From contig JBHLRO010000031.1 in the NCBI GenBank assembly GCA_048882505.1, positions 12,568-33,848 of the forward strand: DNA of 21,281 nt. Reading direction: 5' to 3'. The translations under genes and the position numbers were made by a program. Source of the DNA: Candidatus Thorarchaeota archaeon (GTDB lineage: Archaea > Asgardarchaeota > Heimdallarchaeia > Hodarchaeales > Hodarchaeaceae). Shown here piece by piece: positions 1,700 to 21,281 of this stretch (position 1 is its first letter; each line of letters begins with the position of its first letter). A model generated the notes under the pieces. It was not told the origin of the DNA. It worked only from the letters and a program-made list of their open reading frames with translations, and ran no database searches.

Positions 1700-1727
1700 T
1701 TTTAACCTACCCACCGTTATACGACAT
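1700..1727. other. 28-bp dif/Xer-like site 1
   Basis: TTTTAACCTAC-CCACCG-TTATACGACAT. Minus strand ATGTCGTATAA-CGGTGG-GTAGGTTAAAA versus E. coli dif GGTGCGCATAA-TGTATA-TTATGTTAAAT: 6/11 and 8/11 arm identity. Confidence 0.6.
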
Positions 1728-1891
1728 CAGATAATTTGAAGTTATATAAGAAGAAGATGAATCTGGGAAAAACTCCCTCCTAACACAAGAGCTCGCAGAA
1801 TTTTAGATCTTTTCATAATACCTTTTCATTTTCTATTCAGACAGCCTAGGAAGAACTCCTGAGCTTTCTCATGTGAGATCTTAGAGACTAA

Positions 1892-3229
1892 TTAAATCCG
1901 TGAAGTTTCTCCTTCCCCTTCATCAGGCTTTTTTTCCCTAAAATACAGACTAAGATAGATACATGTAGCCCCAATGAAACTTAGAAACAGTGGAACGATA
2001 ATTCCTTCATTTAGTCCATATTGTTCGATTAAACTTCCAGCAATTGGAAGAGTGGGGATTCCAATAATCGAAGTAAGGGTAGGAATCAATGAGTAAACTG
2101 AATTTCGAAAATCAGATGGAACTAAGTCCACCATGGTTCTTCCTCTCAATGTTTCTGCAATATCATAGATACAATTAACACCAATGGTCAATAGAAGGGC
2201 CGTTAAGATCGCTCCAGGAAAATTTGGCTCATTAGCAGGAGGAATGATAGCTAATAAAATAACAAAGGGAAGATAATATGTGAAAGTAATTAGAAAGTCA
2301 AATAGAGGCAACTTACTGTTCGGAAATTTCTGACTTACTTTTGCCATGTAGATTCCAATTGGAATTCCAACAAAGAACATAATTGTCCTGAATAAGGATG
2401 CTAATCCATCAGTCCCTGTATAGCCGAAATATATAGGGAAGAGAATCAACGAACCCCAAACATTTAGAGCTGCATAAATTATGGACATTCCCATCAAAAA
2501 GAAGAAAGCAGACTTACTAGATACTAGAAATTTGAGTCCTCCGACGAGGAATGTAAAGAAGTTCTCTGATGACGGTTCTGTATATAGAGTATCCTCCTTA
2601 AACTCTATAGCATCAGACTTAATATCCTGGACGAGAAAAATTATGAAGAATATTAGAAACGCTGATAATATTGCTTGAATGAAAAAAACTAGCTCCCGTG
2701 AGAATGAAGTTGCGATAAATCCACCAATTGTGAAGGTAAAGGCCATGGTGATTCTAACTAAACTACCAATACGTGCATTAAAAAAACCATAGATCTTTCG
2801 ATCAGGATCTTGGTCTCCAACTACGCTCTTATAGTTATTGTCAAGCCAAGTACCTAAAGTTCCTGATGCCTGCGCATTGGCCACTCCTGTAAAAAAGGCA
2901 TAGACGAAAAAGTCGGTAAATGTTGTTGAAAAAGATAACAACCAATATGAGATGGCATAACATGAAAAAGCAATTGACAAAACCCACCGTTGACCAATAT
3001 AATCACCGAGAGATCCACTAGGGTAATCAATAAGCAGCTGAATGAGAAGCGTAAAAGAAATAATTATACTTGCTTGTGTTGGTCCGATTTTATCGTAAGT
3101 GTAAAGAACAAAAAATGTACTCGATAAATTTCCTATTATTGATATAATTAAAATTACAACAAGAAATTTCATTATTAAATTACGTGCATTAGGAATCGCT
3201 TCTATCCCTAAAAACCGTGGAAGAAACAA
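1892..3229 (-). CDS. MFS transporter
   Basis: About 12 hydrophobic segments and MFS motif A-like PSGSLGDYIGQR. The ORF track starts at TTG 3289; TTG 3229 follows an AGGTGA SD-like motif and is preferred. Confidence 0.88.
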   Translation of the reverse strand: MFLPRFLGIEAIPNARNLIMKFLVVILIISIIGNLSSTFFVLYTYDKIGPTQASIIISFTLLIQLLIDYPSGSLGDYIGQRWVLSIAFSCYAISYWLLSFSTTFTDFFVYAFFTGVANAQASGTLGTWLDNNYKSVVGDQDPDRKIYGFFNARIGSLVRITMAFTFTIGGFIATSFSRELVFFIQAILSAFLIFFIIFLVQDIKSDAIEFKEDTLYTEPSSENFFTFLVGGLKFLVSSKSAFFFLMGMSIIYAALNVWGSLILFPIYFGYTGTDGLASLFRTIMFFVGIPIGIYMAKVSQKFPNSKLPLFDFLITFTYYLPFVILLAIIPPANEPNFPGAILTALLLTIGVNCIYDIAETLRGRTMVDLVPSDFRNSVYSLIPTLTSIIGIPTLPIAGSLIEQYGLNEGIIVPLFLSFIGATCIYLSLYFREKKPDEGEGETSRI

Positions 3230-3431
3230 ATCATCACCTTTACATAAACAGTCACGCCCGAAAAGGACGAGAGCTTTAAAATATTTCAAAAAAGGCAGTC
3301 ATTCACGCTTTTGCAGGAGAAGACTATGAGTTAGCTGTTGTCCCTCCTAAAACAAGAGCCTCCTTCTCTCGGTTTGACGCACGCTCTCAGCATTATGTGT
3401 TCATAATCCTGAGTATCATTATACGTATTTT

Positions 3432-3459
3432 TGGCAATATATCCAACGTTAAGCGACAT
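3432..3459. other. 28-bp dif/Xer-like site 2
   Basis: TGGCAATATAT-CCAACG-TTAAGCGACAT: same spacer as sites 4, 6 and 7, and the right arm matches the family. Confidence 0.55.
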
Positions 3460-3584
3460 CTCCTTCATGGAGAAAAAACAACTGACTAATGATGGATGAT
3501 GGATAAATGTATTAAAATGATGAAATAGCTAATGGAACAATAGTCTATTGCTCAGTGGTTGAGACAAATAGGAACGTATCGAAC

Positions 3585-4607
3585 ATGAAGGTCTTGGGAT
3601 ACGCAGCAAAAGCGATAGGACAGCCACTGGAACCCTTCACCTACGAGCAACCAAAAACAGATGCACATGATATCCTGGTGTCGGTGACGCACTGCGGTTT
3701 GTGTTATACTGACATCCACGCTATCGACGACTACTACGGAATAACCACCTTTCCCTTTGTCCCTGGTCATGAGATTGTTGGATATGTGTCGGCTGTGGGC
3801 CGTGCAGTATCTAACCTCAAAGAAGGGGATCGGGTCGGCATTGGCTGGCAGGGGCGTTCTTGTATGAAATGTGAGTGGTGCTTGCAGGGCGAAGAGCAGC
3901 TCTGTATGGACATCGTGTCGTCAGGAACATGGGTTCCCTATGGCGGATTCTCGTCCTCTATCTGTGTGGATAGCCGCTTTGCCTACCCGATTCCAGACGC
4001 CATGCCCTCCGAAGTGGCTGCAGTACTCATGTGCGCCGGGATCACGGTTTACTCCCCGCTCCGTTCTTACTCAGCTCATCAAGGGAAGAAAATTGGCATT
4101 ATCGGCGTGGGAGGGCTGGGTCACCTCGCATTACAGTTCGCACGCGCCCTCAATTACGAAGTAACCGCTATTTCCTCCTCTCCAGACAAGAAGGATCAAG
4201 CGCTAGCATTTGGCGCGGACCACTTCCTTGTTTCAGACGACCAGACCAGCATGCAACGAGCTGGGTTCGTCTTCGACCTGCTCTTATGCACCGCTCACGG
4301 CAAGATAAACTGGGAGGTCCTATTGAGTACTCTGAAGAAAAATGGGAGGCTGATCCTTACCGGCTTCCCAGACATGACATTCAATCCGACTGACCTCGTG
4401 GCACATCAATTATCGGTCACCGGGTCCTTCCTTGGCAATCGGGTAACCATGCGAGAGATGCTTTCGTTTGCACAGGAACACACCATCGTTCCCAAGGTAG
4501 AGCTAATGCCCATGACGAAGGTAAACGAAGCTATTCGAAAAGTTAAGGAGAACAAGGCACGCTACCGAATTGTTCTATATAACGACATCGGGGAAGTGGA
4601 ACTCTAA
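3585..4607 (+). CDS. Zn-dependent NAD(P) alcohol dehydrogenase (cinnamyl-alcohol dehydrogenase/YahK-Ahr-like)
   Basis: CGLCYTD and GHE catalytic-Zn motifs, CMKCEWC...C structural-Zn motif, GVGGLGH Rossmann motif, ARYRIVL C-terminus. ATG 3585 preferred over GTG 3555. Confidence 0.93.
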   Translation: MKVLGYAAKAIGQPLEPFTYEQPKTDAHDILVSVTHCGLCYTDIHAIDDYYGITTFPFVPGHEIVGYVSAVGRAVSNLKEGDRVGIGWQGRSCMKCEWCLQGEEQLCMDIVSSGTWVPYGGFSSSICVDSRFAYPIPDAMPSEVAAVLMCAGITVYSPLRSYSAHQGKKIGIIGVGGLGHLALQFARALNYEVTAISSSPDKKDQALAFGADHFLVSDDQTSMQRAGFVFDLLLCTAHGKINWEVLLSTLKKNGRLILTGFPDMTFNPTDLVAHQLSVTGSFLGNRVTMREMLSFAQEHTIVPKVELMPMTKVNEAIRKVKENKARYRIVLYNDIGEVEL

Positions 4608-4704
4608 ATTCTTAGAGTTCTTTGAAGACACTTTAGTCCTAAGCTATCTTTATCCAAGATATCAGATCTTAAGATCATCTCCAACCTATTTTTATTTTAT
4701 CGAA

Positions 4705-4760
4705 TTATGTAAGCAAATGCTTAAATATTACATTTTTTCGTTATGTAAGCAGGTGCTTAC
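4705..4760. promoter_or_regulatory. Two tandem palindromic operators upstream of the ArsR gene
   Basis: TAAGCA-AA-TGCTTA (4710-4723) and GTAAGCA-GG-TGCTTAC (4745-4760), each preceded by TTATG, just upstream of ATG 4765. Confidence 0.7.
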
Positions 4761-4764
4761 CTAT

Positions 4765-5127
4765 ATGGATCACTTGAAAAATCAACTGGATGAAGTATTT
4801 TCGGCATTATCTCATCCTGTTCGTAGAGCAATAATAGAACAAGTGGCTGTTAAGGAATGCACCGTAAACGAGTTAGCTAAGCCTCATAAAATTACCAGAC
4901 CTGCCATATCACAACATCTCCGGATCCTTTTAGATGCCAGCCTGATAGAACAGACAAAAAAAGGAAGATTTCGGATGTGTCATCTCAATGTAAGACCCCT
5001 TTCAGTTGCATTCAACTGGTTGGTCAGATATCGGGTTTTCTGGGAAACGTTACTTGATGAAATCCAAGAAAAGGTGGAAGCTGACGCCAATCTACAGGAA
5101 GACAATCAAAATGCAGGAAAAACCTAG
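4765..5127 (+). CDS. ArsR/SmtB family transcriptional regulator
   Basis: DEVFSALSHPVRRAII...TVNELA...ISQHLRILLDASLI...KGRFRMCHL is a classic ArsR winged HTH, coupled to an SRPBCC gene. ATG 4765 lies within ORF 4570..5127. Confidence 0.92.
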   Translation: MDHLKNQLDEVFSALSHPVRRAIIEQVAVKECTVNELAKPHKITRPAISQHLRILLDASLIEQTKKGRFRMCHLNVRPLSVAFNWLVRYRVFWETLLDEIQEKVEADANLQEDNQNAGKT

Positions 5128-5575
5128 TAAAGAAAATACGTTAAGAATATCGCGGATTATCCGTGCACCAGTTGAACGTGTCTATAAGGCATTTATAGAT
5201 CCGGACGCAATGGTTAAATGGTTCCCCCCACATGGGTTTACAGGAAAGGTCACAAAAAGTGATGTACGAGTCGGCGGGAACTATAAAATGACATTTATCA
5301 ATTTCACCACGGGAACAAGCGAATCCTTTGGAGGTAAATACCTAGAATTGACACCTAATAAACGTATTCGGTATACAGCCCAATTTGAAGACCCAGAAAT
5401 GCCCGAAATAATGGAAACAACAATTGAATTTCGAAATACAGAAGCAGGCACAGAAGTTTCTATAACCCAAAAAGGAATACCTCCAATAGTCCCGATTGAA
5501 TTTGCTACAATGGGTTGGCAGGAATCTCTGCAACTACTTGAACAACTGGTCGTTCCCGAGATTCCTGACACTTAG
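5111..5575 (+). CDS. SRPBCC/AHSA1 (activator of Hsp90 ATPase homologue) family protein
   Basis: ISRIIRAPVERVYKAFIDPDAMVKWF...DVRVGGNY...GWQESLQLL. ATG 5111 overlaps the ArsR 3' end. Confidence 0.92.
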   Translation: MQEKPSKENTLRISRIIRAPVERVYKAFIDPDAMVKWFPPHGFTGKVTKSDVRVGGNYKMTFINFTTGTSESFGGKYLELTPNKRIRYTAQFEDPEMPEIMETTIEFRNTEAGTEVSITQKGIPPIVPIEFATMGWQESLQLLEQLVVPEIPDT

Positions 5576-5651
5576 ACTCAATCATCAACCTAACCTCTTT
5601 CTTTTCTCTTTAAATTGAAATATGAATTAAACAATAAAGGTGAGAAATACT

Positions 5652-6209
5652 ATGAAAAAGCTAATCATGTGGAATTTAATTACCCTCGATGGATATTTCC
5701 AAGGTAAGGAAGATTGGGACTTAAGTTTTCATGACCTAGTTTGGGGAAAAGAGTTAGAAGAGTTTTCAATTGAGCAGCTGAAATCCGCTGATATGATAAT
5801 ATTTGGCCTCACTACCTACCAAGGGATGGCAGCTCATTGGCAAGATGCCGAGGGAGAGGTGGCAGACTTCATGAATAAACTCCCAAAAGCCGTATGTTCG
5901 AGTACGCTAAAAACTGCTCGCTGGAATAACACAATTATCATAAAAAATGCAGCCGATGAAATCTCCAAATTGAAACAAGAAGGAAATGGAGACTTATTTG
6001 TATTTGGCAGTGGTAAACTTTGCGAAAGCCTGATGAAAGAAGACTTATTTGATGAATATAGACTTGTTATTACGCCAGTTTTTCTTGGGGAAGGAAGGCG
6101 GCTTTTTAACGAGGGATCAAAGTATCAAGAACTTAGACTCATTGAATCCAGACCGCTTTCTAATGGCGGTGTTATGTTGAGGTACGCCAATACGTTCGAA
6201 GGTAAATGA
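5652..6209 (+). CDS. Dihydrofolate reductase-like / RibD C-terminal domain protein
   Basis: MKKLIMWNLITLDGYF...IFGLTTY...GSGKL...LFDEYRLVITPVFLGEGRRLF. Confidence 0.92.
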   Translation: MKKLIMWNLITLDGYFQGKEDWDLSFHDLVWGKELEEFSIEQLKSADMIIFGLTTYQGMAAHWQDAEGEVADFMNKLPKAVCSSTLKTARWNNTIIIKNAADEISKLKQEGNGDLFVFGSGKLCESLMKEDLFDEYRLVITPVFLGEGRRLFNEGSKYQELRLIESRPLSNGGVMLRYANTFEGK

Positions 6210-6324: not shown

Positions 6325-6380
6325 AATCAGTATAACCGACGTTTCTTCAATACCGTTCTTTAACCTTGGTTTAACGACAA
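6325..6380. other. Two adjacent degenerate dif-like sites (site 3)
   Basis: AATCAGTATAA-CCGACG-TTTCTTCAATA (6325-6352) and CCGTTCTTTAA-CCTTGG-TTTAACGACAA (6353-6380); each matches only part of the consensus. Confidence 0.3.
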
Positions 6381-9309: not shown

Positions 9310-9484
9310 TGTGAGATGATGCTGACCAATGAATAATGGGTCCTATTCATCATAGAGAACATGATTATAAATTGATTGAGAGATTTAATTTTTCAAAATC
9401 GAAGTTTCGAGACCAAGAAAGTTAAACATTGAACTTCATCGAGCGGATTCGTGACTGCTCTGTTTACGCGCAGCTCTTGGAATC

Positions 9485-9670
9485 GAAACCCTAATGAAAG
9501 AAGGCTTAGTCGATGAATATAGGCTTGTTATTACACCAGTTTTTCTTGGGAAAGGAAGGCGGCTTTTTAGCGAAGGATTGAAGTATCAAGAACTTGGGCT
9601 TCTTGAATCCCAGCCACTTTCTACTGGTGGCATCCTATTAAGGTACGCAAACACGTCTGTTGGCAAATAA
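9485..9670 (+). pseudogene. 3' fragment of a second DHFR-like gene (62 codons, no 5' part)
   Basis: ETLMKEGLVDEYRLVITPVFLGKGRRLFSEGLKYQELGLLESQPLSTGGILLRYANTSVGK* is colinear and gap-free with 6024-6209. Confidence 0.88.
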
Positions 9671-9727
9671 ACGAAAACTCTTCCCTAAGGAGCTCTGATG
9701 TTATTAATCGCTATGCGATCACACATG

Positions 9728-9773
9728 AGCAAAAAAAAGAAACAAAGTTCCTTCCCCGCCCAAAAAGAGAAAA
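9728..9773 (-). repeat. Partial repeat copy (trailer only)
   Basis: AAAAAGAAACAAAGTTCCTTCCCCGCCCAAAAAGAGAAAA matches 17939-17981 and 21112-21153. Confidence 0.8.
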
Positions 9774-11041: not shown

Positions 11042-11078
11042 TAAATCTCGGTCTTGTATATACCCCAGGATATACTTT

Positions 11079-12560: not shown

Positions 12561-12689
12561 CAAGTAGCATATTTTCTGTAAAATCAATTACAGAATGGAT
12601 CTGTTTATGTCTATCTGGAATTATCTCCGTCCAATACAAGCTCGTAGTTCTACCTAATTAAGCAGATTGTAAGAATAGAAAAAAATGAA

Positions 12690-12845: not shown

Positions 12846-12873
12846 GTCCCAACTCATTCCCGTTATGTTGGGA
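12846..12873. other. 28-bp dif-like, partly palindromic site 5
   Basis: GTCCCAACTCA-TTCCCG-TTATGTTGGGA, with TCCCAAC/GTTGGGA inverted arms and the family CG|TTA junction; sits at the end of copy A. Confidence 0.45.
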
Positions 12874-12970
12874 TACAAATATACTTTTATACTTGTAGAA
12901 TTCTGAATATAAACAAGGGAAAAAGCTCAAAATTACAACATTTACGCTAATGCTAGTTACGGTGAGATAA

Positions 12971-13234
12971 TTGACAACAGTGCGATTAAATAAAGATGAT
13001 GAGGATCTTTTAGAAAGGTTAAGAGCTCGTTATATTTTGATGGGCAAAAAAATGACAAAAAAGGAAATTTTAGGACAATTAATCAGACAAGAAGCAAAGA
13101 AATTTGAAGAAGAACTCAATAATCAGCATTTGCCCAAACTAGAGGAGGATATTGCCTGGAAATTACTCCAAACACCAACAAAATGGGGGATTAAAGATAC
13201 TTCTACAACTGTGGATGAATATCTCTATCAGTGA
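12971..13234 (+). CDS. Putative antitoxin (VapB-like)
   Basis: 87 aa, TTG start after GGTGA; MTTVRL N-terminus and acidic DTSTTVDEYLY C-terminus; directly upstream of a PIN gene. Confidence 0.78.
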   Translation: MTTVRLNKDDEDLLERLRARYILMGKKMTKKEILGQLIRQEAKKFEEELNNQHLPKLEEDIAWKLLQTPTKWGIKDTSTTVDEYLYQ

Positions 13235-13243
13235 GGTAATTCC

Positions 13244-13654
13244 ATGGTTGTGCTTTTAGATACTGGGTTTATTCTTGCTATACGAAATTCTGATGATGTT
13301 AATCATAATAAAGCAACCGAATTAATGAGAGAATGTTTATCAGAAAAATATGGCCGGATTATTGTTTCAAATTTCGTATTTGATGAGACCGTTACCTTAA
13401 CACTAGTGAGAACCCGTAATAAGAGCTTAGTTAGAGATATTGGCGACTTTATTTTTGATTCGCCGAGGATTACTTTACTGCATTTGAGCGAAACAGAATT
13501 TCTAGTTACTTGGGAATTCTTCCTTAAATACTTCGAAAAGGGGCTCTCATTTACGGACTGCTCGCTTCTAGTCATGGCGAAGCTCTTCGAGAGTAATGTT
13601 TACATTGCCACCTTTGATCGACATTTCAAGGGACTCCTTCCCGTACTTGGATAA
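13244..13654 (+). CDS. vapC: PIN-domain toxin (VapC family)
   Basis: VLLDTGFILA...FDETVTL...LSFTDCS...TFDRHF are the PIN acidic motifs. Confidence 0.93.
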   Translation: MVVLLDTGFILAIRNSDDVNHNKATELMRECLSEKYGRIIVSNFVFDETVTLTLVRTRNKSLVRDIGDFIFDSPRITLLHLSETEFLVTWEFFLKYFEKGLSFTDCSLLVMAKLFESNVYIATFDRHFKGLLPVLG

Positions 13655-13668
13655 TTCCTGTATAAGAG

Positions 13669-13696
13669 ACGTGCAATAACCAACGTTATACGACAC
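13669..13696. other. 28-bp dif/Xer-like site 6
   Basis: ACGTGCAATAA-CCAACG-TTATACGACAC has the canonical ATAA-N6-TTAT core; 15 bp after the vapC stop and about 42 bp before the trailer of copy B. Confidence 0.65.
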
Positions 13697-13721
13697 CTCA
13701 GTGTCATATCAGTAGAGAATA

Positions 13722-13838
13722 GGGAATAAGGAAAAAACTCCTTCCCCCCGCGAAAAAAAGGCTGGAGTCTGGGTGTTACTTCGTGTTCAGCTGTTCGACT
13801 TCAAGCTGTGACAAGACTAGAGTGCCGCAATCCTAAGA
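13722..13838 (-). repeat. Repeat copy B
   Basis: Minus strand reads IAAL, then a 1-nt deletion, then VLSQLEVEQLNTK* (stop 13776-13778), followed by the trailer GGGGGGAAGGAGTTTTTTCC. Confidence 0.88.
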
Positions 13839-13911
13839 GAACGACTCCTTTTTCGCTCCCCAAATGGCTATTACTTCCAGCAAATAACGTTTACTCTTGG
13901 TAAAAGCTCTC

Positions 13912-14379
13912 TTACCAATGAGAATGCTCAGGGGGTCTTAATTCTGGGAAGTTTGTGTCTCTAGCACGTATAAAGGAACGAAAATAAGAGGGTCTAACCC
14001 GAATCACGGCCCATGTCTTCCTTCTAGCCAAGAATTGCTCTTCTTCAAGCCAATAGTATTTCTTGATTCTCATTGCCTTTACTTTTTCTATAATTTCTTC
14101 GTCCTCAACATTTTCAGCTTCTCCTCTTATCATCACATATTGGTTCTTCCAATCATCCTTATAGACATGATGAACCAAGAGAGCCACATCTGGCTTCCTT
14201 TGAATGTTTCGGATCGTCAAGATGTTGGGTCTCGTCAAAATGTAGATTACACCCTCTTCTTCATGATACATGAAGTAAAATCCAGCAATATAGGGTTTAC
14301 CATTTACCCCAACAGTAGATATGATCAATGCGTCCTCGTCATGTAGAAATTTCTTGCTTGGTTCGTCTATTTCCACCAT
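13912..14379 (-). CDS. Pyridoxamine 5'-phosphate oxidase-like (split-barrel flavin/F420-binding) protein
   Basis: ISTVGVNGKP...IYILT...RNIQRKPDVALLV...VMIRGEAE...VIRVRP. Confidence 0.85.
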   Translation of the reverse strand: MVEIDEPSKKFLHDEDALIISTVGVNGKPYIAGFYFMYHEEEGVIYILTRPNILTIRNIQRKPDVALLVHHVYKDDWKNQYVMIRGEAENVEDEEIIEKVKAMRIKKYYWLEEEQFLARRKTWAVIRVRPSYFRSFIRARDTNFPELRPPEHSHW

Positions 14380-14646
14380 TGTAGTTATTTCCTTCTTTGT
14401 TTTCTTTCTTATATTTTTGCAACCATCGATAGTTAAAAGTTTTCCAATTTCATTTATGGATTCTTTTAGTAAATCTATTCTAGCAAAAACCCAGGATGGA
14501 GTAGATCTAGGATGAGTTTAAATTGATCTTCGTCCCCTTAATGAGGAGTTACAGTTAAAAACAACATATTGGTTAAGACTTTAGAAATGCGATATGTCAA
14601 TATTTAGCACCACATTACAATTGATCTTCACCCCCACCGCCCATTA

Positions 14647-14674
14647 TTTTGTCCTATATCTGGTTAGAGAGCTG
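14647..14674. other. Degenerate dif-like site before copy C
   Basis: TTTTGTCCTAT-ATCTGG-TTAGAGAGCTG: left arm 8/11 identical to site 1, at the expected ~45-bp spacing from the trailer. Confidence 0.3.
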
Positions 14675-14699
14675 TTGGAGTTTGCAAAGAGAAAAAGAT

Positions 14700-14808
14700 A
14701 TTGAAAAAAGAGGAAAAACCTCTCTTCCGTTTTAAACAAAATATTGAGTCTAGATGTCATTTTGTATAGCGCTGTTTGACTTCGGGCTGCGACAAGATAC
14801 AGAGTACT
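14700..14808 (-). repeat. Repeat copy C (diverged)
   Basis: Minus strand 14804-14757 encodes LCILSQPEVKQRYTK*, followed by a diverged trailer. Confidence 0.8.
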
Positions 14809-14916
14809 GATTGTAAAACTGATTTGATCAACTCTGTCTCGATATACATCCAAAACCAAGGAAGAAGGCCTGGAAAAATCCTTGGCAGCGATCTTTAATA
14901 ATATCAATTGGAAAAA

Positions 14917-15098
14917 TTACCTGGATGAACGAACCATTTTACGCGCTTCTATCAGGTGATCTTCCGCTCTTGCTTTTTGTAACCTTTTTTGTACCGTTGC
15001 GTTCTGCATCAATAACTCCTCTCATTTCACGAGTTCTTCTTCCAGTTGTTTCCTTTCTCAAAGAGCTCTTTCAAGTCTCTCTCTTTCATTGCTCTCAC
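14917..15098 (-). pseudogene. Internally deleted remnant of the TPR gene family
   Basis: 15049-15098 is 49/50 identical to 10232-10281 (MRAMKERDLKELFEKG). It is joined out of frame to 44 codons QLEEELVK*EELLMQNATVQKRLQKARAEDHLIEARKMVRSSR*. Confidence 0.75.
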
Positions 15099-15288
15099 CT
15101 ATAGAAAAATTGGCAAAAAAGGGATATTTTAACCTCTAAAACAAAAACAAATATATATTGTAGATATTATATCATTTTCTAATCTGTTCATTAATTTAAA
15201 TTGGAAAGGTTCTGATTACATTTAGAAATGCATAAAATAAACCCGATTGGGCATAATCTAAAAATCCAAAGTCCTAGGGGTCAATTTC

Positions 15289-15960
15289 ATGTTTAAAAAT
15301 ACTCGAATCCCGTACTTTTATCGTTTATCTTTATTGTTAGCTTCACTTACCACCTTTACTGTTCTTGAAATACTTGTTTTTATCGAATTTCAGAATGAAG
15401 TTACGGATCTTATTCAAAGATATCGTACTTGGTCGTATCAATCAAATTTACTTGTTTTAATTTGGCTTGCACTCGCTATTTACTATAATACGAATGAAAA
15501 TAAAAAGGATATTTTATTTGGACCATTAAAAGGTGCTATAACTTCATATATTACCGTTACGATTGTATTCTGGCATTTTGTTATTTCTCCGACCGCAGCT
15601 CCCGCAGAAGGAATTGTAATACTAGCAAATCTTATGATTCATTATTTCCTGCCAATTGCTTTTATTGTTGATTTTCTTCTATTTGATGTTCCCTCCTATG
15701 AATGGAAATCTATTCCGTCTTGGTTTATTTTTCCTTTAGTATGGACTGGTTTTGTCATGTTGACAGGTCTTACGGGATTTTTTAGAAACTCTTTGGGATT
15801 ACCGAATTATGTTTATCCATTCCTTAGTATTAATCGACATGGGGTAATCTCAGTAGGAACTTTCCTATTAATCGTATATATCGGTCTTTTATTAATGGCA
15901 GTAGCTTATGTTGGAATTTCTAAGATAAAAAATCGTTCCAAAATTCTGCAAGCAAATTAA
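15289..15960 (+). CDS. Pr6Pr / FAR-17a-AIG1-like membrane protein
   Basis: About 6 TM helices; SYQSN, HYFLP...DF and YVYPFL motifs. Confidence 0.72.
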   Translation: MFKNTRIPYFYRLSLLLASLTTFTVLEILVFIEFQNEVTDLIQRYRTWSYQSNLLVLIWLALAIYYNTNENKKDILFGPLKGAITSYITVTIVFWHFVISPTAAPAEGIVILANLMIHYFLPIAFIVDFLLFDVPSYEWKSIPSWFIFPLVWTGFVMLTGLTGFFRNSLGLPNYVYPFLSINRHGVISVGTFLLIVYIGLLLMAVAYVGISKIKNRSKILQAN

Positions 15961-16319
15961 ATATGCAAAGACCATAGAATCAAAAGATTGTAGAGATTAA
16001 TAAAGGAGAAATAACGAGAAATAGTCCGAAAATATTCCTTTTCTTTCCAATCCAAGTCTAACCAATGGAAAGTCTGGAAATTATCCCCGTTTAATCCCTT
16101 TCTATATTAAAATATCCCGTTTTCGTAAAAAAGGAAATTCAATTTAAGATCGCTCTAATTGGGGAAAATCGGAAAAAAATGTCATTTCTTCAAAGAAGGC
16201 ACCTGATGGCTTGTAAAGCTGAGTCAGTCAAGGCAAAAATACTCTCTCCTACCCCCGTCAGGATTTGCATTGCGATTAATCAGGGATATTTCACACCGTA
16301 CTTACGGTTGTACTACATT

Positions 16320-16347
16320 TAACGTAATATCCAACGTTAACCGACTT
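16320..16347. other. 28-bp dif/Xer-like site 7
   Basis: TAACGTAATAT-CCAACG-TTAACCGACTT. Confidence 0.55.
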
Positions 16348-16402
16348 CGATGCGGTACTCACTCTACCATAAGAAGGAAAAAAGGAAACAAAGCTCCTTC
16401 AC
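16348..16402 (-). repeat. Partial repeat copy (site-proximal trailer)
   Basis: CGATGCGGTACTCACTCTACCATAAGAAGGAAAAAAGGAAACAAAGCTCCTTC is near-identical to 21081-21133. Confidence 0.9.
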
Positions 16403-16649
16403 CTTTTAAGAAAGCCAGAATTTAAAAAAGACGTCATTAAACATCCAACACTGGGAGGTGTTAAGGACACTTTCAGTGGAGGCAAGGTATCACAGATCTC
16501 TTATGAATGAACACCCCACGATCGTTCTATCTTCTTCCTTCCAAATATTAGCCTCTTAATACCTGGATCGCCACTGGTCATTAGTGGTTTCACAGGTAGA
16601 CCAAAGTGAAAACAAAAAAAACCTTTGGAATTTTCAAAAGAGAGAGACG

Positions 16650-17585
16650 TCATAAATTTTTATACCAGTCAAGGGTTTGATGAATCGCTTCCCGGTGAGG
16701 TGTGACAGTTTTACCAAACGCTTTTTCAAATTTAGAGTGATCAAGAATAAAAGGATCTTGAAATTGGTAAAGCGTTTCCTTCAACTCTCGAAGCGTGGGA
16801 TCAACTATTCCTAGTAAGGAAACGATTATATTTGGTGTAACGCTTATTTTGGGTTCAGCATTTGCTTCTTCAAACATCAATTCCAGAAATTGCCTTGTAG
16901 TCAGTGTTTCAGCACTCGGAATATGCCATACCTGTCCAAACGCTTCATTATGGTCTGCTAACGTTATGAGGCCTTTGGCAAAGTCTTCAATAAACATGTA
17001 TGTATGAGGAACGTCAAGATTACCCAAAACACTCACCTTCTGGCCTCTTAAGATGTTTGGAACCACGCGTTCTCCGATAGCGGCAAACAATACTCTGGGC
17101 CCGAAAAAATCAGAGGAACGACCAATAGTCGCCTCGATTTTACCATTGTTATGAGCCTCGATTAACATATCAGCAATCTGAGCTCGAGCTTTTCCTTTTC
17201 TCCCATGCGGATTATAAGGAAGATTTTCGGCGATAGGACCTTGGACACGGCCATAACAGTACAGATTATCACCAAAAACCAACCTAGCTCCAGTATTTAT
17301 TGCGAGATTAATCATACTTTCCATAATTAGAGGGTGCTTCTCTGGCCATTTAGTATAAGGGGGACTAACACAGTGATAGATCACTGTCGCCCCAGTAACA
17401 GCATTTTTTGAAGACTGAGGGTCAAATATGTCTGCTTTAGCCATCTCAACCTCTTCAGTACCCCTTATCTTCCCACTACGATTGACACCACGAACATTTC
17501 TGTCTTGTTTCCTTAGTTCACGAATAATCGCGGATCCAAGTGCTCCACTAGCACCAAATACCACATGAAGTTCATCTTTACTCAT
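16650..17585 (-). CDS. NAD-dependent epimerase/dehydratase (atypical SDR)
   Basis: VVFGASGALG Rossmann motif, DNLYCYG, KGKARA, GRSSDFFGP. Confidence 0.92.
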   Translation of the reverse strand: MSKDELHVVFGASGALGSAIIRELRKQDRNVRGVNRSGKIRGTEEVEMAKADIFDPQSSKNAVTGATVIYHCVSPPYTKWPEKHPLIMESMINLAINTGARLVFGDNLYCYGRVQGPIAENLPYNPHGRKGKARAQIADMLIEAHNNGKIEATIGRSSDFFGPRVLFAAIGERVVPNILRGQKVSVLGNLDVPHTYMFIEDFAKGLITLADHNEAFGQVWHIPSAETLTTRQFLELMFEEANAEPKISVTPNIIVSLLGIVDPTLRELKETLYQFQDPFILDHSKFEKAFGKTVTPHREAIHQTLDWYKNL

Positions 17586-17876: not shown

Positions 17877-17904
17877 CTATTAAAACAATTCCATTATACA
17901 ATTT
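17877..17904. other. Degenerate dif-like site before copy D
   Basis: CTATTAAAACA-ATTCCA-TTATACAATTT: left arm 8/11 to site 9, right arm 7/11 to site 1, about 48 bp from the trailer. Confidence 0.3.
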
Positions 17905-17929
17905 CATACTATTTTGTCCTAAATCAGAA

Positions 17930-18098
17930 AGAATGAGAAAAAGGAAACAAAGCTCCTTCCCCGCCTCAAACAGAGACAAGATGCTGGAGGGTACTTCCGC
18001 GTTAGAGCTGTTCCACTTCAGGCTGTGACAAGATGTAGAGCGCCGCGATCCCCAAGATGGTTTCAAAGAGTACGTTAAACAGATTCAGGGCCCCAAAC
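17930..18098 (-). repeat. Repeat copy D
   Basis: Minus strand 18097-18002 encodes FGALNLFNVLFETILGIAALYILSQPEVEQL*. It begins immediately after the vapC stop codon at 18099. Confidence 0.92.
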
Positions 18099-18521
18099 TT
18101 ATTTCATGATTCGATTGAAACTAAAATTGTCGAAATGCTTATCAAAACTATAAATTTCCTTGACTTTTAAGCGATCCATCAAGATTTTCGCCAATGAATC
18201 ATTAATCCCAACTTTGTACCTTTGGGCCAGCACTGCCGCCCCTTGATAGTCGCTATGGGTCACATCAAGAACTCTAATCGTTTCCTTTGCTAGTAAATCA
18301 TAGATGAATTGGGCCGCTTCGGAAAAACTCTTCCGAGTTTCCAGAACACTCGCCACTTCTGACAAATGAACAACACTCGTCACTACTTCTTCTCCCTTAT
18401 CCACTCGGGTAATAATTTCCCTCGCTTCCGATTTCATTTTCCGAAGATGCTCGGGAAGCTCTTGGATGGGCTCCAGAACTGCGTATAAGAACGTCGAAGC
18501 ATCAATAAACCGCAAATTCAC
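18099..18521 (-). CDS. vapC: PIN-domain toxin (VapC family)
   Basis: FIDASTFLYA...HLSEV...GINDSLA...IYSFDKHFD; 4-nt overlap with the antitoxin gene. Confidence 0.93.
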   Translation of the reverse strand: MNLRFIDASTFLYAVLEPIQELPEHLRKMKSEAREIITRVDKGEEVVTSVVHLSEVASVLETRKSFSEAAQFIYDLLAKETIRVLDVTHSDYQGAAVLAQRYKVGINDSLAKILMDRLKVKEIYSFDKHFDNFSFNRIMK

Positions 18522-18757
18522 ACCTTCCCTCCACTTAGCAAGTACTCCTTTAACCTATGGTAATCCGAGTAGATATCGGGAGGTATCTCTACCTTAAGAA
18601 ATTCAAAATACTTTTGTAAATTGGGATCGTCTTTTGGAATAACCAACAACAGATCTCCATCTTCAACCAGAAAAACCTCGTTCGATTGAACCTTTTTCCG
18701 CCATTCTGGAGGTAATACCACTCGTCCTTGGGAATCGATCCTTTTCAACTCAATCAT
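18518..18757 (-). CDS. AbrB/MazE/SpoVT-type antitoxin (VapB)
   Basis: KRIDSQGRVVLPPEWRKK...VEDGDLLLVIP is the swapped-hairpin signature. Confidence 0.9.
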   Translation of the reverse strand: MIELKRIDSQGRVVLPPEWRKKVQSNEVFLVEDGDLLLVIPKDDPNLQKYFEFLKVEIPPDIYSDYHRLKEYLLSGGKV

Positions 18758-18762
18758 TATAA

Positions 18763-18846
18763 TCCCATATTTTGCTGGTTTTTCCCACTTTTAAAGATCC
18801 CTCCCCAGAAATGATTCATGCCTCCCATTACTTTCGAAAACTCCCA
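18763..18846. promoter_or_regulatory. Phased TCCCA/TGGGA array, putative antitoxin operator
   Basis: TCCCA or TCCCCA at 18763, 18783, 18802, 18823 and 18842 (19-21 bp period), directly upstream of the antitoxin ATG. Confidence 0.6.
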
Positions 18847-19114
18847 ATTTCACCCCAAATCCGAATAATAAGGAGTAAAAAAAGAGTCTATCTATTCCTA
18901 GTAGTCCTTTTCGCTTCTAGTTATCTTCTTACCGGAGCAATTAAAAGCGAGTCAGCTTAACGGTGTACTAGTAGCGTAGCCAATATTAAAAGGATTCAGT
19001 TCATAAGGTGAGTCGATATATCGATAGGGACAAATTCTTCCTCTCTTTCCTCTTTCATGTTTCGGAATAATAAGAGAGGAGAGAGTATTCATTTGGCAGC
19101 ACCTATACTAGAGT

Positions 19115-19546
19115 TCAGAAAGTAAAAACATAATAACGTACTACCCCCTCCCATCCTCCATGTATCTCTCTAATAACATTTGAAATAGTAGGTGATAAAA
19201 TACGATTGCAATGGTTTCTCCATGCTTTTGGTATTCCTTTTATTGACCCTGGATGATACAAGTCTTTATCGAGAGTAAAAACAGATCGTTTCAGTCCTAA
19301 CCTATGAACTAATTGTATTTCCTCATCCAAAAACTTGCTGCTTGACGGATCTGTTCCAACAAATAGAATAGAAACTTTACATTGCTCCATCAAACTTTTT
19401 AGGGTTGGTAATCCTGTGGTTTCGGAAGTTGTTTCATCATAATAAACCACTTTATATATTCCATTTTTATGTCGGTTAATATAGTCAATTAGATGGGAAA
19501 TTCGGTCTTGAGCGACATTCTTTCTTATCAGATATATTTTCCTCAT
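19115..19546 (-). CDS. Putative TIR-like domain protein (MTH538/DUF1863, ThsB-like)
   Basis: MRKIYLI...CKVSILFVGTDPSSSKFLDEEIQLV...SVFTL follows the remembered pattern (S)VTIVLIG..T..SKWV..EI of MTH538-type TIRs. ATG 19546 preferred over TTG 19564. Confidence 0.5.
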   Translation of the reverse strand: MRKIYLIRKNVAQDRISHLIDYINRHKNGIYKVVYYDETTSETTGLPTLKSLMEQCKVSILFVGTDPSSSKFLDEEIQLVHRLGLKRSVFTLDKDLYHPGSIKGIPKAWRNHCNRILSPTISNVIREIHGGWEGVVRYYVFTF

Positions 19547-19885
19547 TGTTACTCCATTTTCCAAGTTTTAAATAACACCAAAGGTGTATGATTACAAGGT
19601 TTCGGTTTTAGATAGGCTCCCACATTAATAAAACTATTGAACACAGAACGATCATTATATTTTACATGAGTATCAAGAGTTTGCAAATGTAAGCTAATCA
19701 GCTAGAAAATCTCTCTTCCAGTTTTTTCTTAGTAAATCCGCACTTCACGTATGTTATTTATGAACTTTGGATTCTACTGACAACGAAAGTCAACATTGCG
19801 TAACAACTGGAAATAACCAAGGATCCGCTTTGTTTGAACCAAAATTTCAATTTTATATCGTCCAATCTTAAGTACTCAATATGGA

Positions 19886-19913
19886 TATTTCGATGACCAT
19901 GGTTAGCCGAATT
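19886..19913. other. Degenerate dif-like site before copy E
   Basis: TATTTCGATGA-CCATGG-TTAGCCGAATT: right arm 9/11 identical to site 7. Confidence 0.4.
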
Positions 19914-19924
19914 TAGCAAAGAAA

Positions 19925-20053
19925 GCGAAGAAGAAAAAGGAAAACACTCCTTCCCCCTCAAAAAAAGGTTAAGTCTGGGTATTACTTCGTGTAAAGTTGC
20001 TCGACTTCAGGTTGTGACAAGACGTAGAGCGCTGCAATCCCCAAGATGGTTCC
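19925..20053 (-). repeat. Repeat copy E
   Basis: Minus strand 20053-19982 encodes an intact GTILGIAALYVLSQPEVEQLYTK*, followed by the trailer. Confidence 0.92.
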
Positions 20054-20059
20054 ATAGCT

Positions 20060-20087
20060 AGTGTTGGATCCCTCCGTTAGATGACAC
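20060..20087. other. 28-bp dif-like site 8
   Basis: AGTGTTGGATC-CCTCCG-TTAGATGACAC: right arm 8/11 to site 6; lies 7 bp beyond the end of copy E. Confidence 0.45.
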
Positions 20088-20164
20088 TGCCAAAGCTTAA
20101 ATACTAGAATATTCTATCACCTGGTATTTGCTCATCCTGGGGTGAGTCATTTTGACCTTTTCCT

Positions 20165-20281
20165 CGAGGAAGACAAAGCTCCTAGTTCTTTTATCAATCC
20201 TGGTGATTAGTTCAGCTTTCCTGGGAAATTTTGCCAGTTTATCTAATAGAATAGACTGCAATCCCAACAATGGTTCGTATT
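20165..20281 (-). repeat. Repeat copy G (strongly degenerate)
   Basis: Colinear shards GGAAGACAAAGCTCCT, CTGGTGATTAGTTCAGCTTTCC and CTGCAATCCCAACAATGGTTC in the same order as in copy F. Confidence 0.6.
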
Positions 20282-20285
20282 TAAC

Positions 20286-21059
20286 ATGAGTATTGAATTG
20301 GACCTGTATTACACGTTTTTACTAATAATGGTGATGATTGCAGTAGCGGTTTTCTTTAGTCTATTTTTTATACCAGCTGGGTATGGCCAATTAATCAGTA
20401 AACGATGGGGAACAGTTACCATTAATAACAGGCCGGGTTGGGTAATTATGGAACTCCCTGTTGTACTTTTTATGTCACTATTTTGGCTGGTTTCTGAGCG
20501 AACCCTTGAACCAACTCCCTTCGTCCTTTTCATTTTGTTTAATATTCACTATTGTCAAAGGACGTTTATTTTTCCATTATTGATACGAGGAGAAAATCAA
20601 ATGCCTTGGTCCATTATCATTCTTGGAATGGTCTTCAATTCTGCAAACGCCTTTATGCAGGGAATTTGGATCTTCTTCTTATCGCCTCCTACTCTTTATA
20701 ATCCACAATGGCTCTCAACGCCTCAATTTATAATTGGTACAACAATGTTTATGATTGGTTTCTTTATCAATATTCATTCAGATCATACTATCAGAAATTT
20801 ACGTGAACCTGGAGATACTGCCTTCCACATTCCAAATGGGGGTCTATTTAAGTATGTTACATCTGCAAACTACTTTGGGGAGTTCACGGAATGGGTTGGG
20901 TGGATGATTTTGACCTTGTCTTGGCCAGGGTTTGTATTTGCATTATGGACATTCGCAAATCTAGGCCCAAGGGCCCACAGCCTGAGAAATTGGTATAGGA
21001 AAACGTTTGGTGAGGAATTTCCGATGAATAGAAAACGCATGATTCCATTCATCTATTAA
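20286..21059 (+). CDS. 3-oxo-5-alpha-steroid 4-dehydrogenase (steroid 5-alpha-reductase/DET2/SRD5A) family protein
   Basis: GWVIMELP, HYCQRTFIFP, NIHSDHTIRNLR.PG...IPNGGLFKYV..ANYFGE..EW, NLGPRA, RKRMIPFIY. Confidence 0.92.
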   Translation: MSIELDLYYTFLLIMVMIAVAVFFSLFFIPAGYGQLISKRWGTVTINNRPGWVIMELPVVLFMSLFWLVSERTLEPTPFVLFILFNIHYCQRTFIFPLLIRGENQMPWSIIILGMVFNSANAFMQGIWIFFLSPPTLYNPQWLSTPQFIIGTTMFMIGFFINIHSDHTIRNLREPGDTAFHIPNGGLFKYVTSANYFGEFTEWVGWMILTLSWPGFVFALWTFANLGPRAHSLRNWYRKTFGEEFPMNRKRMIPFIY

Positions 21060-21080
21060 ATATTCAACGTTAAACGACTT
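21053..21080. other. 28-bp dif/Xer-like site 9
   Basis: CTATTAAATAT-TCAACG-TTAAACGACTT; the left arm contains the TAA stop of the reductase gene. Confidence 0.55.
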
Positions 21081-21164
21081 CGATGTGGTACTCACTCTAC
21101 CATGAAAAGGAAAAAAGGAAACAAAGCTCCTTCCCCGTCTTAAAAAGAGAAAAGATGCTGGAGG
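21081..21164 (-). repeat. Trailer of copy F (3' UTR with pyrimidine-rich, terminator-like tract)
   Basis: Minus strand ...GGGGAAGGAGCTTTGTTTCCTTTTTTCCTTTTC..., shared with all repeat copies. Confidence 0.85.
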
Positions 21165-21281
21165 TTATTTCTGGGTATAGAGCTGTTCCACTTCGGGCTG
21201 TGATAAGACGTAAAGCGCCGCAATCCCAAACATGGTTCCAAAGGGTAGATTGATCAAATTCAGGGCTCCAATCACCATGGT
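21165..21281 (-). CDS. 3' end of a membrane-protein gene (partial, runs off right edge); candidate parent of the repeat family
   Basis: Open to the window edge: TMVIGALNLINLPFGTMFGIAALYVLSQPEVEQLYTQK* (39 codons). Hydrophobic helix with an (N)xPxGT motif followed by an amphipathic PEVEQLY tail. Confidence 0.72.
   Translation of the reverse strand, partial: TMVIGALNLINLPFGTMFGIAALYVLSQPEVEQLYTQK

Follow-up and report, generated by a model that had tools for sequence, protein, structure and literature searches.

What do the repeated gene ends and short sites behind a small membrane-protein gene of a Hodarchaeales-type Asgard archaeon represent, and how did they come to separate about eleven gene cassettes of 1-3 kb? 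We addressed this question in a window of 21,281 nucleotides from Candidatus Thorarchaeota archaeon (GenBank assembly GCA_048882505.1, contig JBHLRO010000031.1, positions 12,568 to 33,848), where a first-pass annotation had proposed an integron-like cassette array built from dif-like sites and displaced gene ends. The repeated pattern it described is real and lies where it was placed, whereas its interpretation is only partly supported by the analyses below. Genomes are denoted by handles: G000 is the genome of the window, G016 a sister species, G009 a closed genome, and G007 and G002 further genomes with an intact copy of the target gene; C numbers denote contigs.

A unit repeated on the minus strand

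To test if the pattern holds, we built a profile from the repeat copies and searched the window with it. From position 1700 to the contig end (21281) the minus strand repeats one unit, composed of a 5'-truncated 3' end of a Zn-ribbon membrane gene, its roughly 110-nt trailer, and a site made of a conserved 11-nt left arm (..GTCGNNTAA), CGTTGG and a variable right arm. Units were found at 21057-21243 (F; the gene end runs on to 21281, where it is cut by the contig end), 19889-20059 (E), 17878-18068 (D), 16326-16414 (P, trailer and site only), 14673-14807 (C), 13672-13837 (B) and 12642-12810 (A), these seven scoring nhmmer E 1e-11 to 1e-47, along with a trailer trace at 9708-9767 (E-values overall from 1e-47 to 1e-4). 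In frame, the copies read ..GALNLxNxPFGTxFGIAALYVLSQPEVEQLYT(Q)K*. Strong sites (spacer CCAACG on the plus strand) lie at 21064, 16331, 13680, 3443 and 1711, half-sites at 12544 and 11090, and decayed sites at 19886, 17877, 14647 and about 6353, all in one orientation. Read from the gene outwards, the parts are as follows.

21165-21281, minus: 3' end (38 codons plus stop) of the target gene, a Zn-ribbon membrane protein whose remainder is lost at the contig end; 86% identical to the G007 full-length protein over residues 150-186, with full-length orthologues of 186-193 aa in G016, G007 and G002
21053-21164, minus: trailer F (21081-21164) and site 9 (left arm 21070-21080, spacer 21064-21069, right arm 21053-21063; PWM score 24.8)
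20286-21059, plus: cassette 1 cargo, a steroid 5-alpha-reductase family gene (Steroid_dh, PF02544, 150.8 bits) whose stop codon lies in the right arm of site 9; the block 19989-21227 is 94% identical to G016:C62 1-1239 in a different context
19886-20285, minus: degenerate unit G (about 20130-20285), then unit E, a fragment of about 25 codons, trailer and decayed site at 19886-19913
18099-19564, minus: cargo, a 149-aa ORF (weakly ThsB_TIR-like), a MazE/AbrB-type antitoxin and a PIN toxin
17877-18098, minus: unit D (E 8e-46), a fragment of about 35 codons, trailer and decayed site at 17877-17904
16650-17585, minus: cargo, an NAD-dependent epimerase/SDR (PF01370, 69.7 bits)
16320-16414, minus: unit P, trailer and intact site only (spacer 16331-16336), 89% identical to the F trailer and site
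14871-15960: cargo, a Pr6Pr membrane protein (15289-15960, plus; NF038065, 54.8 bits) and the 5' remnant of a TPR gene (14871-15098); 15089-16018 is 94% identical to G016:C62 2024-2953, and 15049-15098 is 98% identical to 10232-10281
14647-14807, minus: unit C, a fragment of about 15 codons, trailer and decayed site; absent between PPOX and Pr6Pr in G016
13912-14379, minus: cargo, a pyridoxamine-phosphate-oxidase-like (PPOX) gene (PNPOx, PF01243, 50.4 bits); 13721-14515 is 90.5% identical to G016:C62 1120-1920
13669-13837, minus: unit B, a fragment of about 20 codons, trailer and intact site (spacer 13680-13685); the gene-proximal junction of a 2.6-kb insertion
11097-13686: the 2.6-kb insertion relative to G016:C99, with a vapBC pair (12971-13654), unit A (12642-12838), a half-site (12533-12560) and a CPBP/Rce1-like gene (11135-12151)
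11079-11106, minus: half-site with spacer and right arm kept and the left arm replaced by the end of the CPBP cassette; the distal junction of the insertion
9685-11041: cargo, a truncated TPR gene (9685-10281, minus), a 163-aa ORF (10550-11041, plus) and a trailer trace at 9708-9773; 9774-11096 is 90% identical to G016:C99 6145-7468
6210-9668: cassette with ArsR, ArsP permease and thioredoxin, ending in a displaced RibD_C 3' end (9484-9668; repeat match at 81%), with a decayed site at about 6353-6380
3460-6209, plus: cargo, zinc ADH, ArsR-type HTH, AHSA1/SRPBCC and RibD_C
3432-3459, minus: intact site without a gene fragment (spacer 3443-3448; PWM score 27.6), whose right flank recurs at G009:741430
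1892-3289, minus: cargo, an MFS transporter (PF07690, 74.3 bits)
1700-1800, minus: site 1 (spacer 1711-1716, CCACCG), preceded by a trailer of the G007 type; the last recognisable site

Family searches upheld the cargo names of the first-pass annotation, including two PIN/antitoxin pairs, with the one exception of "TIR", which is only a sub-threshold ThsB_TIR hit (E 0.044). GC content swings between 0.32 and 0.51 across the array, against 0.41 for the genome.

To exclude that repeats had been wrongly chained during assembly or binning, a concern because the window begins after a 100-N scaffold gap and ends at a contig end inside a repeat, and because arrays in relatives also break contigs, we compared the layout with other assemblies. 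First, the units are only 70-90% alike and hence do not collapse. Second, contigs of the source run bridge units A-B-C, P, E and G at even depth of about 25. Third, contigs from a run of another study (X2) reproduce the D and C units with both of their flanks, at 99-100% identity. Finally, a closed genome and six other assemblies show the same architecture. An artefact is therefore very unlikely.

Distribution of the site

We then asked if the site is confined to the array. The exact pattern GTCGNNTAACGTTGR occurs 4 times in the window and once elsewhere in the 4.3-Mb genome, where we estimate a chance expectation of about 0.06 per genome and the backwards control gives 0; by contrast, the bare 9-mer is not enriched. 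Among 22 genomes of the genus, 15 carry the site, with 35 copies in total, compared to 0 of 61 genomes of 17 other genera, the control pattern giving 0-1 per genome. The closed genome G009 has three separate exact copies (at 0.74, 3.08 and 3.35 Mb) and three units, while G016:C62 has seven units, as does the window.

Cassette turnover between species

The first-pass annotation had named three conditions that would refute the proposal: the same gene order in relatives with no module turnover, a site spread over intergenic DNA genome-wide, and module boundaries in relatives that do not coincide with the sites. None of them was fulfilled: the site is confined to the array as described above, relatives show module turnover and reordering, and several module boundaries in relatives fall exactly on the site. 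The steroid-reductase, PPOX and Pr6Pr cassettes are shared with G016 at 90-94% identity but in a different order and with different neighbours. Moreover, G016:C99 has one uninterrupted site exactly where the window carries the 2.6-kb insertion: the break falls between the left arm and CGTTGG on one side and after CGTTGG on the other, and the insert is flanked by the 10-bp direct repeat TAACCAACGT, which includes CGTTGG. Contigs of two runs (X3 and X5) show the same joint. Among 26 strong sites, 9 pairs share the left flank but not the right and 2 pairs share the right but not the left, whereas no left-only pair remains when the boundary is moved 35-70 nt upstream. One trailer type is joined to three unrelated cargoes directly after CGTTGG. 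The case for precise insertion nevertheless rests on this one clean empty/filled pair plus flank-sharing patterns among related, non-independent genomes, and no circular form or excision joint was seen in the contigs examined, which drop rare variants.

Not all boundaries sit on sites, however. The PPOX-Pr6Pr link does not, the first junction behind the intact gene lies inside the trailer in G016 and at a site with an internal deletion in G002, and fragment starts range from 12 to 57 codons before the stop. Furthermore, the G016 unit at C62:1068-1242 is a hybrid, B-like in its first ~20 nt and F-like after that, pointing to homologous recombination between units. Homologous recombination and deletions thus appear as a second process that reshapes the array. 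Many sites are decayed, so much of the array may now be fixed.

Candidate recombinases and comparison with dif and integrons

We wondered which recombinase might act on the site. As the first-pass annotation had remarked, no recombinase gene lies in the array as far as the contig reaches, nor beside the intact gene in G016, G007 or G002 (none within 10 kb upstream in G016 or 8 kb upstream in G007). The only tyrosine recombinase found in G000, the single PF00589 protein, is encoded on another contig and is an XerA equivalog (NF040815, 255 bits against a cut-off of 220); XerA is likewise the only one found in G016, and no serine recombinase or Y1 transposase was found in G000.

On this basis the motif could be the genus's dif, with XerA as the enzyme and the cassettes as IMEX-type elements that exploit Xer. 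The 11-6-11 geometry, the ..TAA before and often TTA/ATA after the 6-bp centre, and breakpoints at both edges of this centre, as expected for a tyrosine recombinase, are in line with this view. On the other hand, the arms of dif are 11-bp inverted repeats around a 6-bp centre (PMC2958812, PMC5357621), while at seven sites here only 3-6 of 11 positions match as inverted repeats, against 2.88 (sd 1.48) for all 28-mers of the window, 4.6% of which reach 6. The right arm is not conserved, and no palindromic version of the left arm exists in G000. Moreover, dif is present as one conserved copy per chromosome, in the termination region, whereas here there are three exact copies in G009, 5 in G000 and none in 7 of 22 genomes of the genus, and the intact genes of G016 and G002 lack an intact site behind them, which is unexpected for a site the cell needs. 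The term dif-like is therefore not supported by the defining test of inverted arms, and we consider this explanation unlikely.

We next considered a true integron, or a cluster of attC sites lacking an integrase (CALIN), of the kind reported as enriched in Asgard archaea; integrons and CALINs are reported in about 8% of Asgard genomes (PMC9668308). The cargo profile (toxin-antitoxin pairs, small enzymes, unknowns) and cassette sizes resemble those of an integron, and GTTGGAT and GTTGAAT fit the GTTRRRY core, although GTTGGTT does not. At a resolution of 1-2 nt, breakpoints fall at the two edges of CGTTGG, fitting a 6-bp overlap better than a single G/TT point. Yet there is no IntI, the tyrosine recombinase with an IntI-specific insert that sits beside an integron array: the XerA protein scores only 144.8 bits on the integron-integrase model (TIGR02249, cut-off 265). 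Sites of the attC type are imperfect palindromes of 57-141 nt in which R'' (RYYYAAC) pairs with R' (GTTRRRY), but DNA folds of both strands of five units were weak (best -5 to -17 kcal/mol over 158 nt) and left the site unpaired or in 3-bp local stems, with no upstream RYYYAAC partner. Unlike attC sites, the repeats are conserved in sequence and derive from a coding gene. By these criteria the array is not an integron, and this reading is very improbable.

A cassette-accretion model

We favour, with moderate confidence, the view that this is a chromosomal cassette-accretion array. As related species hold the same cassettes in other orders, it looks like a gene-capture site that works like an integron but is built from different parts. 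In this view, small circular DNAs of 1-3 kb without an integrase recombine, at the CGTTGG overlap, with the site of about 28 bp that lies about 110 nt behind the stop codon, and each event leaves one hybrid site on either side of the insert, so that cassettes stack up in one orientation. Many cassettes end in a 5'-truncated copy of the target gene's 3' end with its trailer and a left arm, from which we infer that they were first cut out of such a locus together with flanking host DNA. That tail also gives them 100-260 bp of homology to the target, and homologous recombination between repeated units would then delete, fuse and re-insert modules. Also in favour of this model, fragment E differs from the live gene end (F) mostly at synonymous sites, with 9 synonymous and 2 nonsynonymous codon differences, and therefore diverged while it was still part of a working gene. 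The recombinase would act in trans, being either the host XerA or an integrase brought in by a mobile element. While the repeats, the restriction of the site to the genus and the array (apart from one other locus), cassette reordering between species and one precise insertion inside the site are established by our data, the circular intermediates, the origin of the tails, the identity of the enzyme and any catalysis by XerA are inferences.

Alternatively, larger integrase-bearing elements (proviruses, plasmids) may have integrated one after another at or in the gene's 3' end, bringing replacement gene ends as elements that target tRNA, ssrA or protein genes do, after which deletions and homologous recombination removed integrases and core genes and left 1-3 kb remnants, nothing moving as a small cassette. 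Displaced gene ends with a purifying-selection signature, as in fragment E, are the classic footprint of such integration (PMC3146451). The site-independent deletions, the recombination between units and the decayed sites also accord with this possibility. In addition, a second array with the same site, in G007:C56, ends in a module in which a 289-aa tyrosine integrase with a 156-aa ORF sits directly behind a site, although homologues of this integrase in five other genomes have no exact site in the flanks retrieved. Conversely, no integrase fragment, replication, virion or other mobile-element hallmark gene occurs in the roughly 18 cassettes annotated in G000 and G016; the mapped crossover lies 110 nt behind the gene, so a replacement gene end is not needed; the same small cassettes recur intact, with the same borders, in different contexts in another species; and sites occur without any gene fragment, with 52-nt "empty" units between two CGTTGG words. 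We regard this alternative as possible but less likely.

A further-reaching hypothesis, which we hold only tentatively and think improbable, is that Hodarchaeales, among the closest known archaeal relatives of eukaryotes, run an independently evolved functional analogue of the integron, in which the housekeeping recombinase XerA captures, stacks and exchanges single-gene cassettes at a genus-specific asymmetric site, the copied tail serving as a homology handle that lets cassettes enter related genomes even without the enzyme. This would be a standing route for gene import in this lineage.

Asgard archaea of this group have large genomes rich in imported genes, and how these get in is poorly known; the locus shows a concrete, recurring entry point where, in our model, small cassettes without integrases are exchanged between species at a defined 6-bp crossover, next to a gene whose displaced tails record earlier events. 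If active, it gives archaea a gene-capture device that works like an integron without IntI or attC, and even if now inactive, the array is a dated record of horizontal transfer within the genus.

Relation to described systems

We found no description of this array in the searchable literature, but the first-pass statement that no system of this exact architecture is described in archaea is too strong if extended to systems in general, because tandem accretion arrays bounded by copies of a target gene's 3' end, some without integrases, are published for bacteria. The closest are the Dehalococcoides ssrA islands (PMC3146451), with CIME/ICE accretion at fda in streptococci (PMC7563491, PMC5704250) as another example. 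As in those arrays, islands are stacked downstream of one gene in one orientation, each bounded by a direct repeat that copies the gene's 3' end, and content differs between relatives with borders (though not all) at the repeats; some members of the bacterial arrays lack any integration module and are thought to ride on others by accretion. Here, by contrast, the host is an Asgard archaeon and the target a protein gene, the repeats are long (up to 170 nt of coding sequence plus a 110-nt trailer) and diverged (70-90%), the crossover maps to a separate site behind the trailer rather than inside the gene, no member in G000 and G016 carries an integration module, and the modules are integron-sized (1-3 kb) rather than 10-30 kb.

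Integrons and CALINs, including the archaeal ones (PMC9668308), share the one-way stack of small recombinase-less cassettes, shuffled between relatives with a short core at each boundary, but here there is no attI next to an integrase, the boundary element is a sequence-conserved double-strand-type site plus a scrap of a host gene, genes lie in both orientations, and insertion is seen at an internal site, not only at the gene-proximal one. IMEX elements at dif (CTX-phi, TLC-phi, VGJ-phi, gonococcal island; PMC5357621) and Acinetobacter pdif modules (PMC7399989) are likewise integrase-less, using a host tyrosine recombinase and a 28-bp 11-6-11 site, and after integration one junction is a good site and the other a poor one, which allows serial stacking; here a link to XerA is only conjectural, and whereas pdif modules are flanked by sites in alternating orientation, all strong, half and decayed sites of the window are on the minus strand. 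Finally, phage 21 and e14 in icd of E. coli also leave a displaced, diverged copy of the gene's last ~50 codons, differing mostly at synonymous sites, at the far end of the insert; these phages encode their own integrase and cross over at the upstream edge of the duplicated gene end, while here fragment starts vary and the fixed boundary is the downstream site.

A repeated gene-end unit in the window

The window, which lies on contig C31 of the genome under study (G000:C31:12568-33848), begins after a 100-N scaffold gap and runs to the end of the contig. The genome is 4.3 Mb in size, 41% GC and 94.5% complete. A repeat finder and a profile built from the copies revealed one unit repeated on the minus strand, and the observation made in the first-pass annotation is thus borne out:

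21057-21243 (-), unit F (the gene end runs on to 21281)
20130-20285, approximate (-), a decayed copy, unit G
19889-20059 (-), unit E
17878-18068 (-), unit D
16326-16414 (-), unit P
14673-14807 (-), unit C
13672-13837 (-), unit B
12642-12810 (-), unit A
9708-9767 (-), a trailer trace

In frame, the copies read as the C-terminus of one protein (..GALNLxNxPFGTxFGIAALYVLSQPEVEQLYT(Q)K*), with copy F remaining open to the contig end. Full-length orthologues of 186-193 aa, with an N-terminal zinc ribbon and membrane helices, exist in the sister species G016 and in the sister genomes G007 and G002. By contrast, a 49%-identical paralogue on contig C1 of G000 and its orthologue in another genus (CP070760) carry no array.

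Each unit consists of a coding fragment that begins 12-57 codons before the stop, a trailer of about 110 nt with a purine block followed by a T-rich run, and a site. To test if the trailer forms a conserved hairpin, we ran RNAalifold on 14 trailers, which gave -0.69 kcal/mol and no compensatory pairs, so that a terminator reading rests only on the purine block and the T-rich run. Read in the direction of the gene, the site has a well conserved 11-nt left arm (..GTCGNNTAA), the word CGTTGG, and a right arm in which only the first three or four bases show any preference. All sites in the window point the same way:

21053-21080 (-), strong site
19886 (-), decayed site
17877 (-), decayed site
16320-16347 (-), strong site
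14647 (-), decayed site
13669-13696 (-), strong site
12533-12560 (-), half-site
11079-11106 (-), half-site
6353, approximate (-), decayed site
3432-3459 (-), strong site
1700-1727 (-), strong site

The array therefore holds about eleven modules of 1.0-3.3 kb. The cargo names given in the first-pass annotation hold, except that its 'TIR' is only a sub-threshold hit, and PADLOC found no defence family for the unknown cargo ORFs. The window contains no tRNA genes and no Rfam families.

Two gene parts recur among the cargoes. First, the last ~62 codons of the RibD_C (DHFR-like) gene (6023-6207) recur 3.4 kb downstream (9484-9668) at 81% identity, in the same orientation and without a 5' part, such that the two copies bracket the ArsR/ArsP/thioredoxin module. 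Each copy lies just after a decayed site when read in the direction of the array, so they may be the heads of two related cassettes, and G016:C99 (a contig of the sister species) departs from the window exactly at 9490. Second, a 50-nt stretch covering the start of the TPR gene recurs at 98% identity beside the Pr6Pr cassette as a 5' remnant (10232-10281 and 15049-15098; 14871-15063), and the TPR gene itself (9685-10281) runs straight into a unit trailer at about 9773.

The site is specific to the genus

To determine if the site occurs more often than by chance, we counted the exact pattern GTCGNNTAACGTTGR and found it five times in G000, four of them in this array, compared to an estimated chance expectation of about 0.06 per genome and to 0 for the backwards control. 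The only other exact copy in this genome (G000:C2:401312-401326) has no gene-end unit next to it. Conversely, the bare 9-mer TAACGTTGG is not enriched genome-wide (29 copies, versus 9-44 for seven control words). Across the class, the pattern is present in 15 of 22 genomes of this genus and in none of 61 genomes from 17 other genera. Similarly, the gene-end unit was found by BLAST in 8 of 21 sister genomes and in none of 19 genomes outside the genus. A scan of metagenome contigs with a 14-base site pattern returned chance matches only, and nhmmer found no unit among the 119 loci, apart from one contig (L068) with two look-alike sites 1.5 kb apart.

Cassette order and junctions in relatives

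We next compared the array with that of G016, which is 90-94% identical and has the intact gene at C62:9563-10144, followed by seven units. Three window cassettes are present there, but in a different order: the steroid-reductase block (window 19989-21227) matches C62:1-1239, PPOX (13721-14515) matches C62:1120-1920 and Pr6Pr (15089-16018) matches C62:2024-2953. Whereas the reductase is the first cassette behind the gene in the window, it lies beyond Pr6Pr and PPOX in G016. The other G016 cassettes hold two more PIN/antitoxin pairs, an S41 peptidase and two unknown ORFs, and no recombinase lies in the G016 array or in the 10 kb upstream of the gene.

The clearest junction is at window 11096/13687. 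G016:C99 has one uninterrupted site whose right flank equals window ..11096 and whose left flank (a B-type trailer) equals window 13687.., whereas in the window these two halves are separated by 2.6 kb holding the CPBP gene, a half-site, unit A and a vapBC pair. Homology breaks between the left arm and CGTTGG on one side and directly after CGTTGG on the other, and the insert is flanked by the 10-bp direct repeat TAACCAACGT. This is the one clean pair of empty and filled sites in a comparison of related genomes that are mostly fragmented assemblies. Contigs of two public runs (X3 and X5) that hold the G016-like species show the same joint. The joints seen in these Logan contigs belong to that species, and not to variants within one population, and there is no direct evidence of circles.

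Other flank comparisons agree. First, one trailer type (B) is followed by three unrelated cargoes directly after CGTTGG. Second, one cargo head is preceded by unrelated left flanks in the genomes G009 and G017. Third, among 26 strong sites, 9 pairs share only the left flank and 2 share only the right, and no left-only pair remains if the boundary is moved 35-70 nt upstream, although these pairs come from related genomes and are not independent events.

On the other hand, not every boundary is at a site. The G016 unit at C62:1068-1242 is B-like for its first ~20 nt, next to PPOX, and F-like from there through the trailer and site, which is the product expected from homologous recombination between two units. 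PPOX and Pr6Pr are joined by 105 unrelated bases in G016, but by unit C plus a TPR remnant in the window. Moreover, the first junction behind the intact gene lies inside the trailer in G016 and has a site with an internal deletion in G002. In the closed genome G009, an array (G009:C1, 3075793-3086344) has three gene-end fragments (two of about 57 codons, one of about 45) but no intact target gene anywhere in the genome, and this array therefore outlives its anchor gene.

A model for cassette accretion

The fixed downstream boundary at a 6-bp word, with breakpoints at both of its edges, is what a tyrosine-recombinase overlap region gives, whereas the variable upstream boundary of the coding fragment is what an illegitimate joint or later deletion gives. 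A fixed crossover inside the coding region, as in phage 21, was rejected as the main mechanism because fragment starts spread from 12 to 57 codons before the stop. On the basis of these boundaries, we hypothesize that cassettes integrate by site-specific recombination at CGTTGG, that cassettes carrying a gene-end tail were first excised together with flanking host DNA, and that the tail then allows homologous recombination with the target or with other units. While the repeats, the distribution of the site, the reordering of cassettes and the mapped insertion are observed directly in the sequences, circular intermediates, the way in which the tails arose and the identity of the recombinase are inferred. 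Codon comparisons support the view that fragments were once live gene ends in different lineages, as fragment E differs from the live gene end at 9 synonymous and 2 nonsynonymous codons, whereas D and A have accumulated more replacements. In the mapped insertion, the incoming DNA shared the overlap and a conserved right arm (TTATTGC..), but not the left arm, and after integration the gene-proximal junction therefore has two good arms and the distal junction a poor left arm. This asymmetry would favour stacking, an inference that rests on one event.

Candidate recombinases

No recombinase gene lies in the array. G000 has one tyrosine recombinase, an XerA equivalog, and no serine recombinase or Y1 transposase, and G016 also has only XerA. 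The XerA of these two genomes (L026:5883-7124 in G000, on contig C5) is read as a 413-428 aa open frame that matches the family models in two stretches, whereas sister genomes give 293-309 aa, suggesting an N-terminal extension or insertion. Some sister genomes have accessory integrases. In G007 (contig C56; locus L024, 4950-6250 and 17670-19200), a second array with the same site is built behind another sequence, with a different repeated leader (three copies at 90-96%). One of its cassettes holds a vapBC pair 79% identical to window 18099-18796, and it ends in a module of a 156-aa ORF plus a 289-aa tyrosine integrase, encoded at L024:18270-19139 and placed directly after a site. In G009, another integrase lies 280 bp from a site-bearing mini-element. 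However, these two integrases are only 25% identical to each other and five homologues of the G007 enzyme lack an exact site nearby, so both XerA and the accessory integrases remain mere candidates.

Relation to known systems

The interpretation of the first-pass annotation, an integron-like cassette array built from dif-like sites, is supported only in part. The array is not an integron: there is no IntI and no attC fold, and the repeats are sequence-conserved and derived from a gene. Nor is the site a dif site by definition, because the arms are not inverted repeats (3-6 of 11 matches, against a random mean of 2.9) and because the site is multi-copy in a closed genome and dispensable behind the gene. 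A search for the real dif showed that no palindromic version of the left arm exists in G000 and that the best 11-6-11 palindrome of the genome (C2:180100) is conserved only in G016. It is also not a pdif module, since all sites are co-oriented. By contrast, the array fits the features of tandem accretion arrays bounded by copies of a target gene's 3' end, which are published for the ssrA islands of Dehalococcoides and include members without integration modules (PMC3146451). It differs from those islands in host domain, the kind of target, repeat length, the position of the crossover, module size and the complete lack of integration modules in two arrays. Literature searches on Asgard mobile elements, archaeal integrons, XerA and IMEX returned no description of this system.

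Further features of the site and its surroundings

A 52-nt 'empty cassette' lies between two CGTTGG words and recurs in several genomes of the genus, at the following positions:

L022:13386-13444 and 10809-10881 (locus of G009)
L024:14736-14820 (locus of G007)
L011:9466-9529
L012:4561-4642
window 3405-3448 (half of it)

It contains a direct repeat of ATACGTATA and may be a protein-binding arm or a minimal site pair. Just outside the array, the minus-strand ORF that is open at the window start (1-1247) has no Pfam hit, but holds a tandem protein repeat with a 150-186 nt period (repeat families D4 and D11) and has 49% GC with strong C-skew. It looks like a repeat-rich surface protein.
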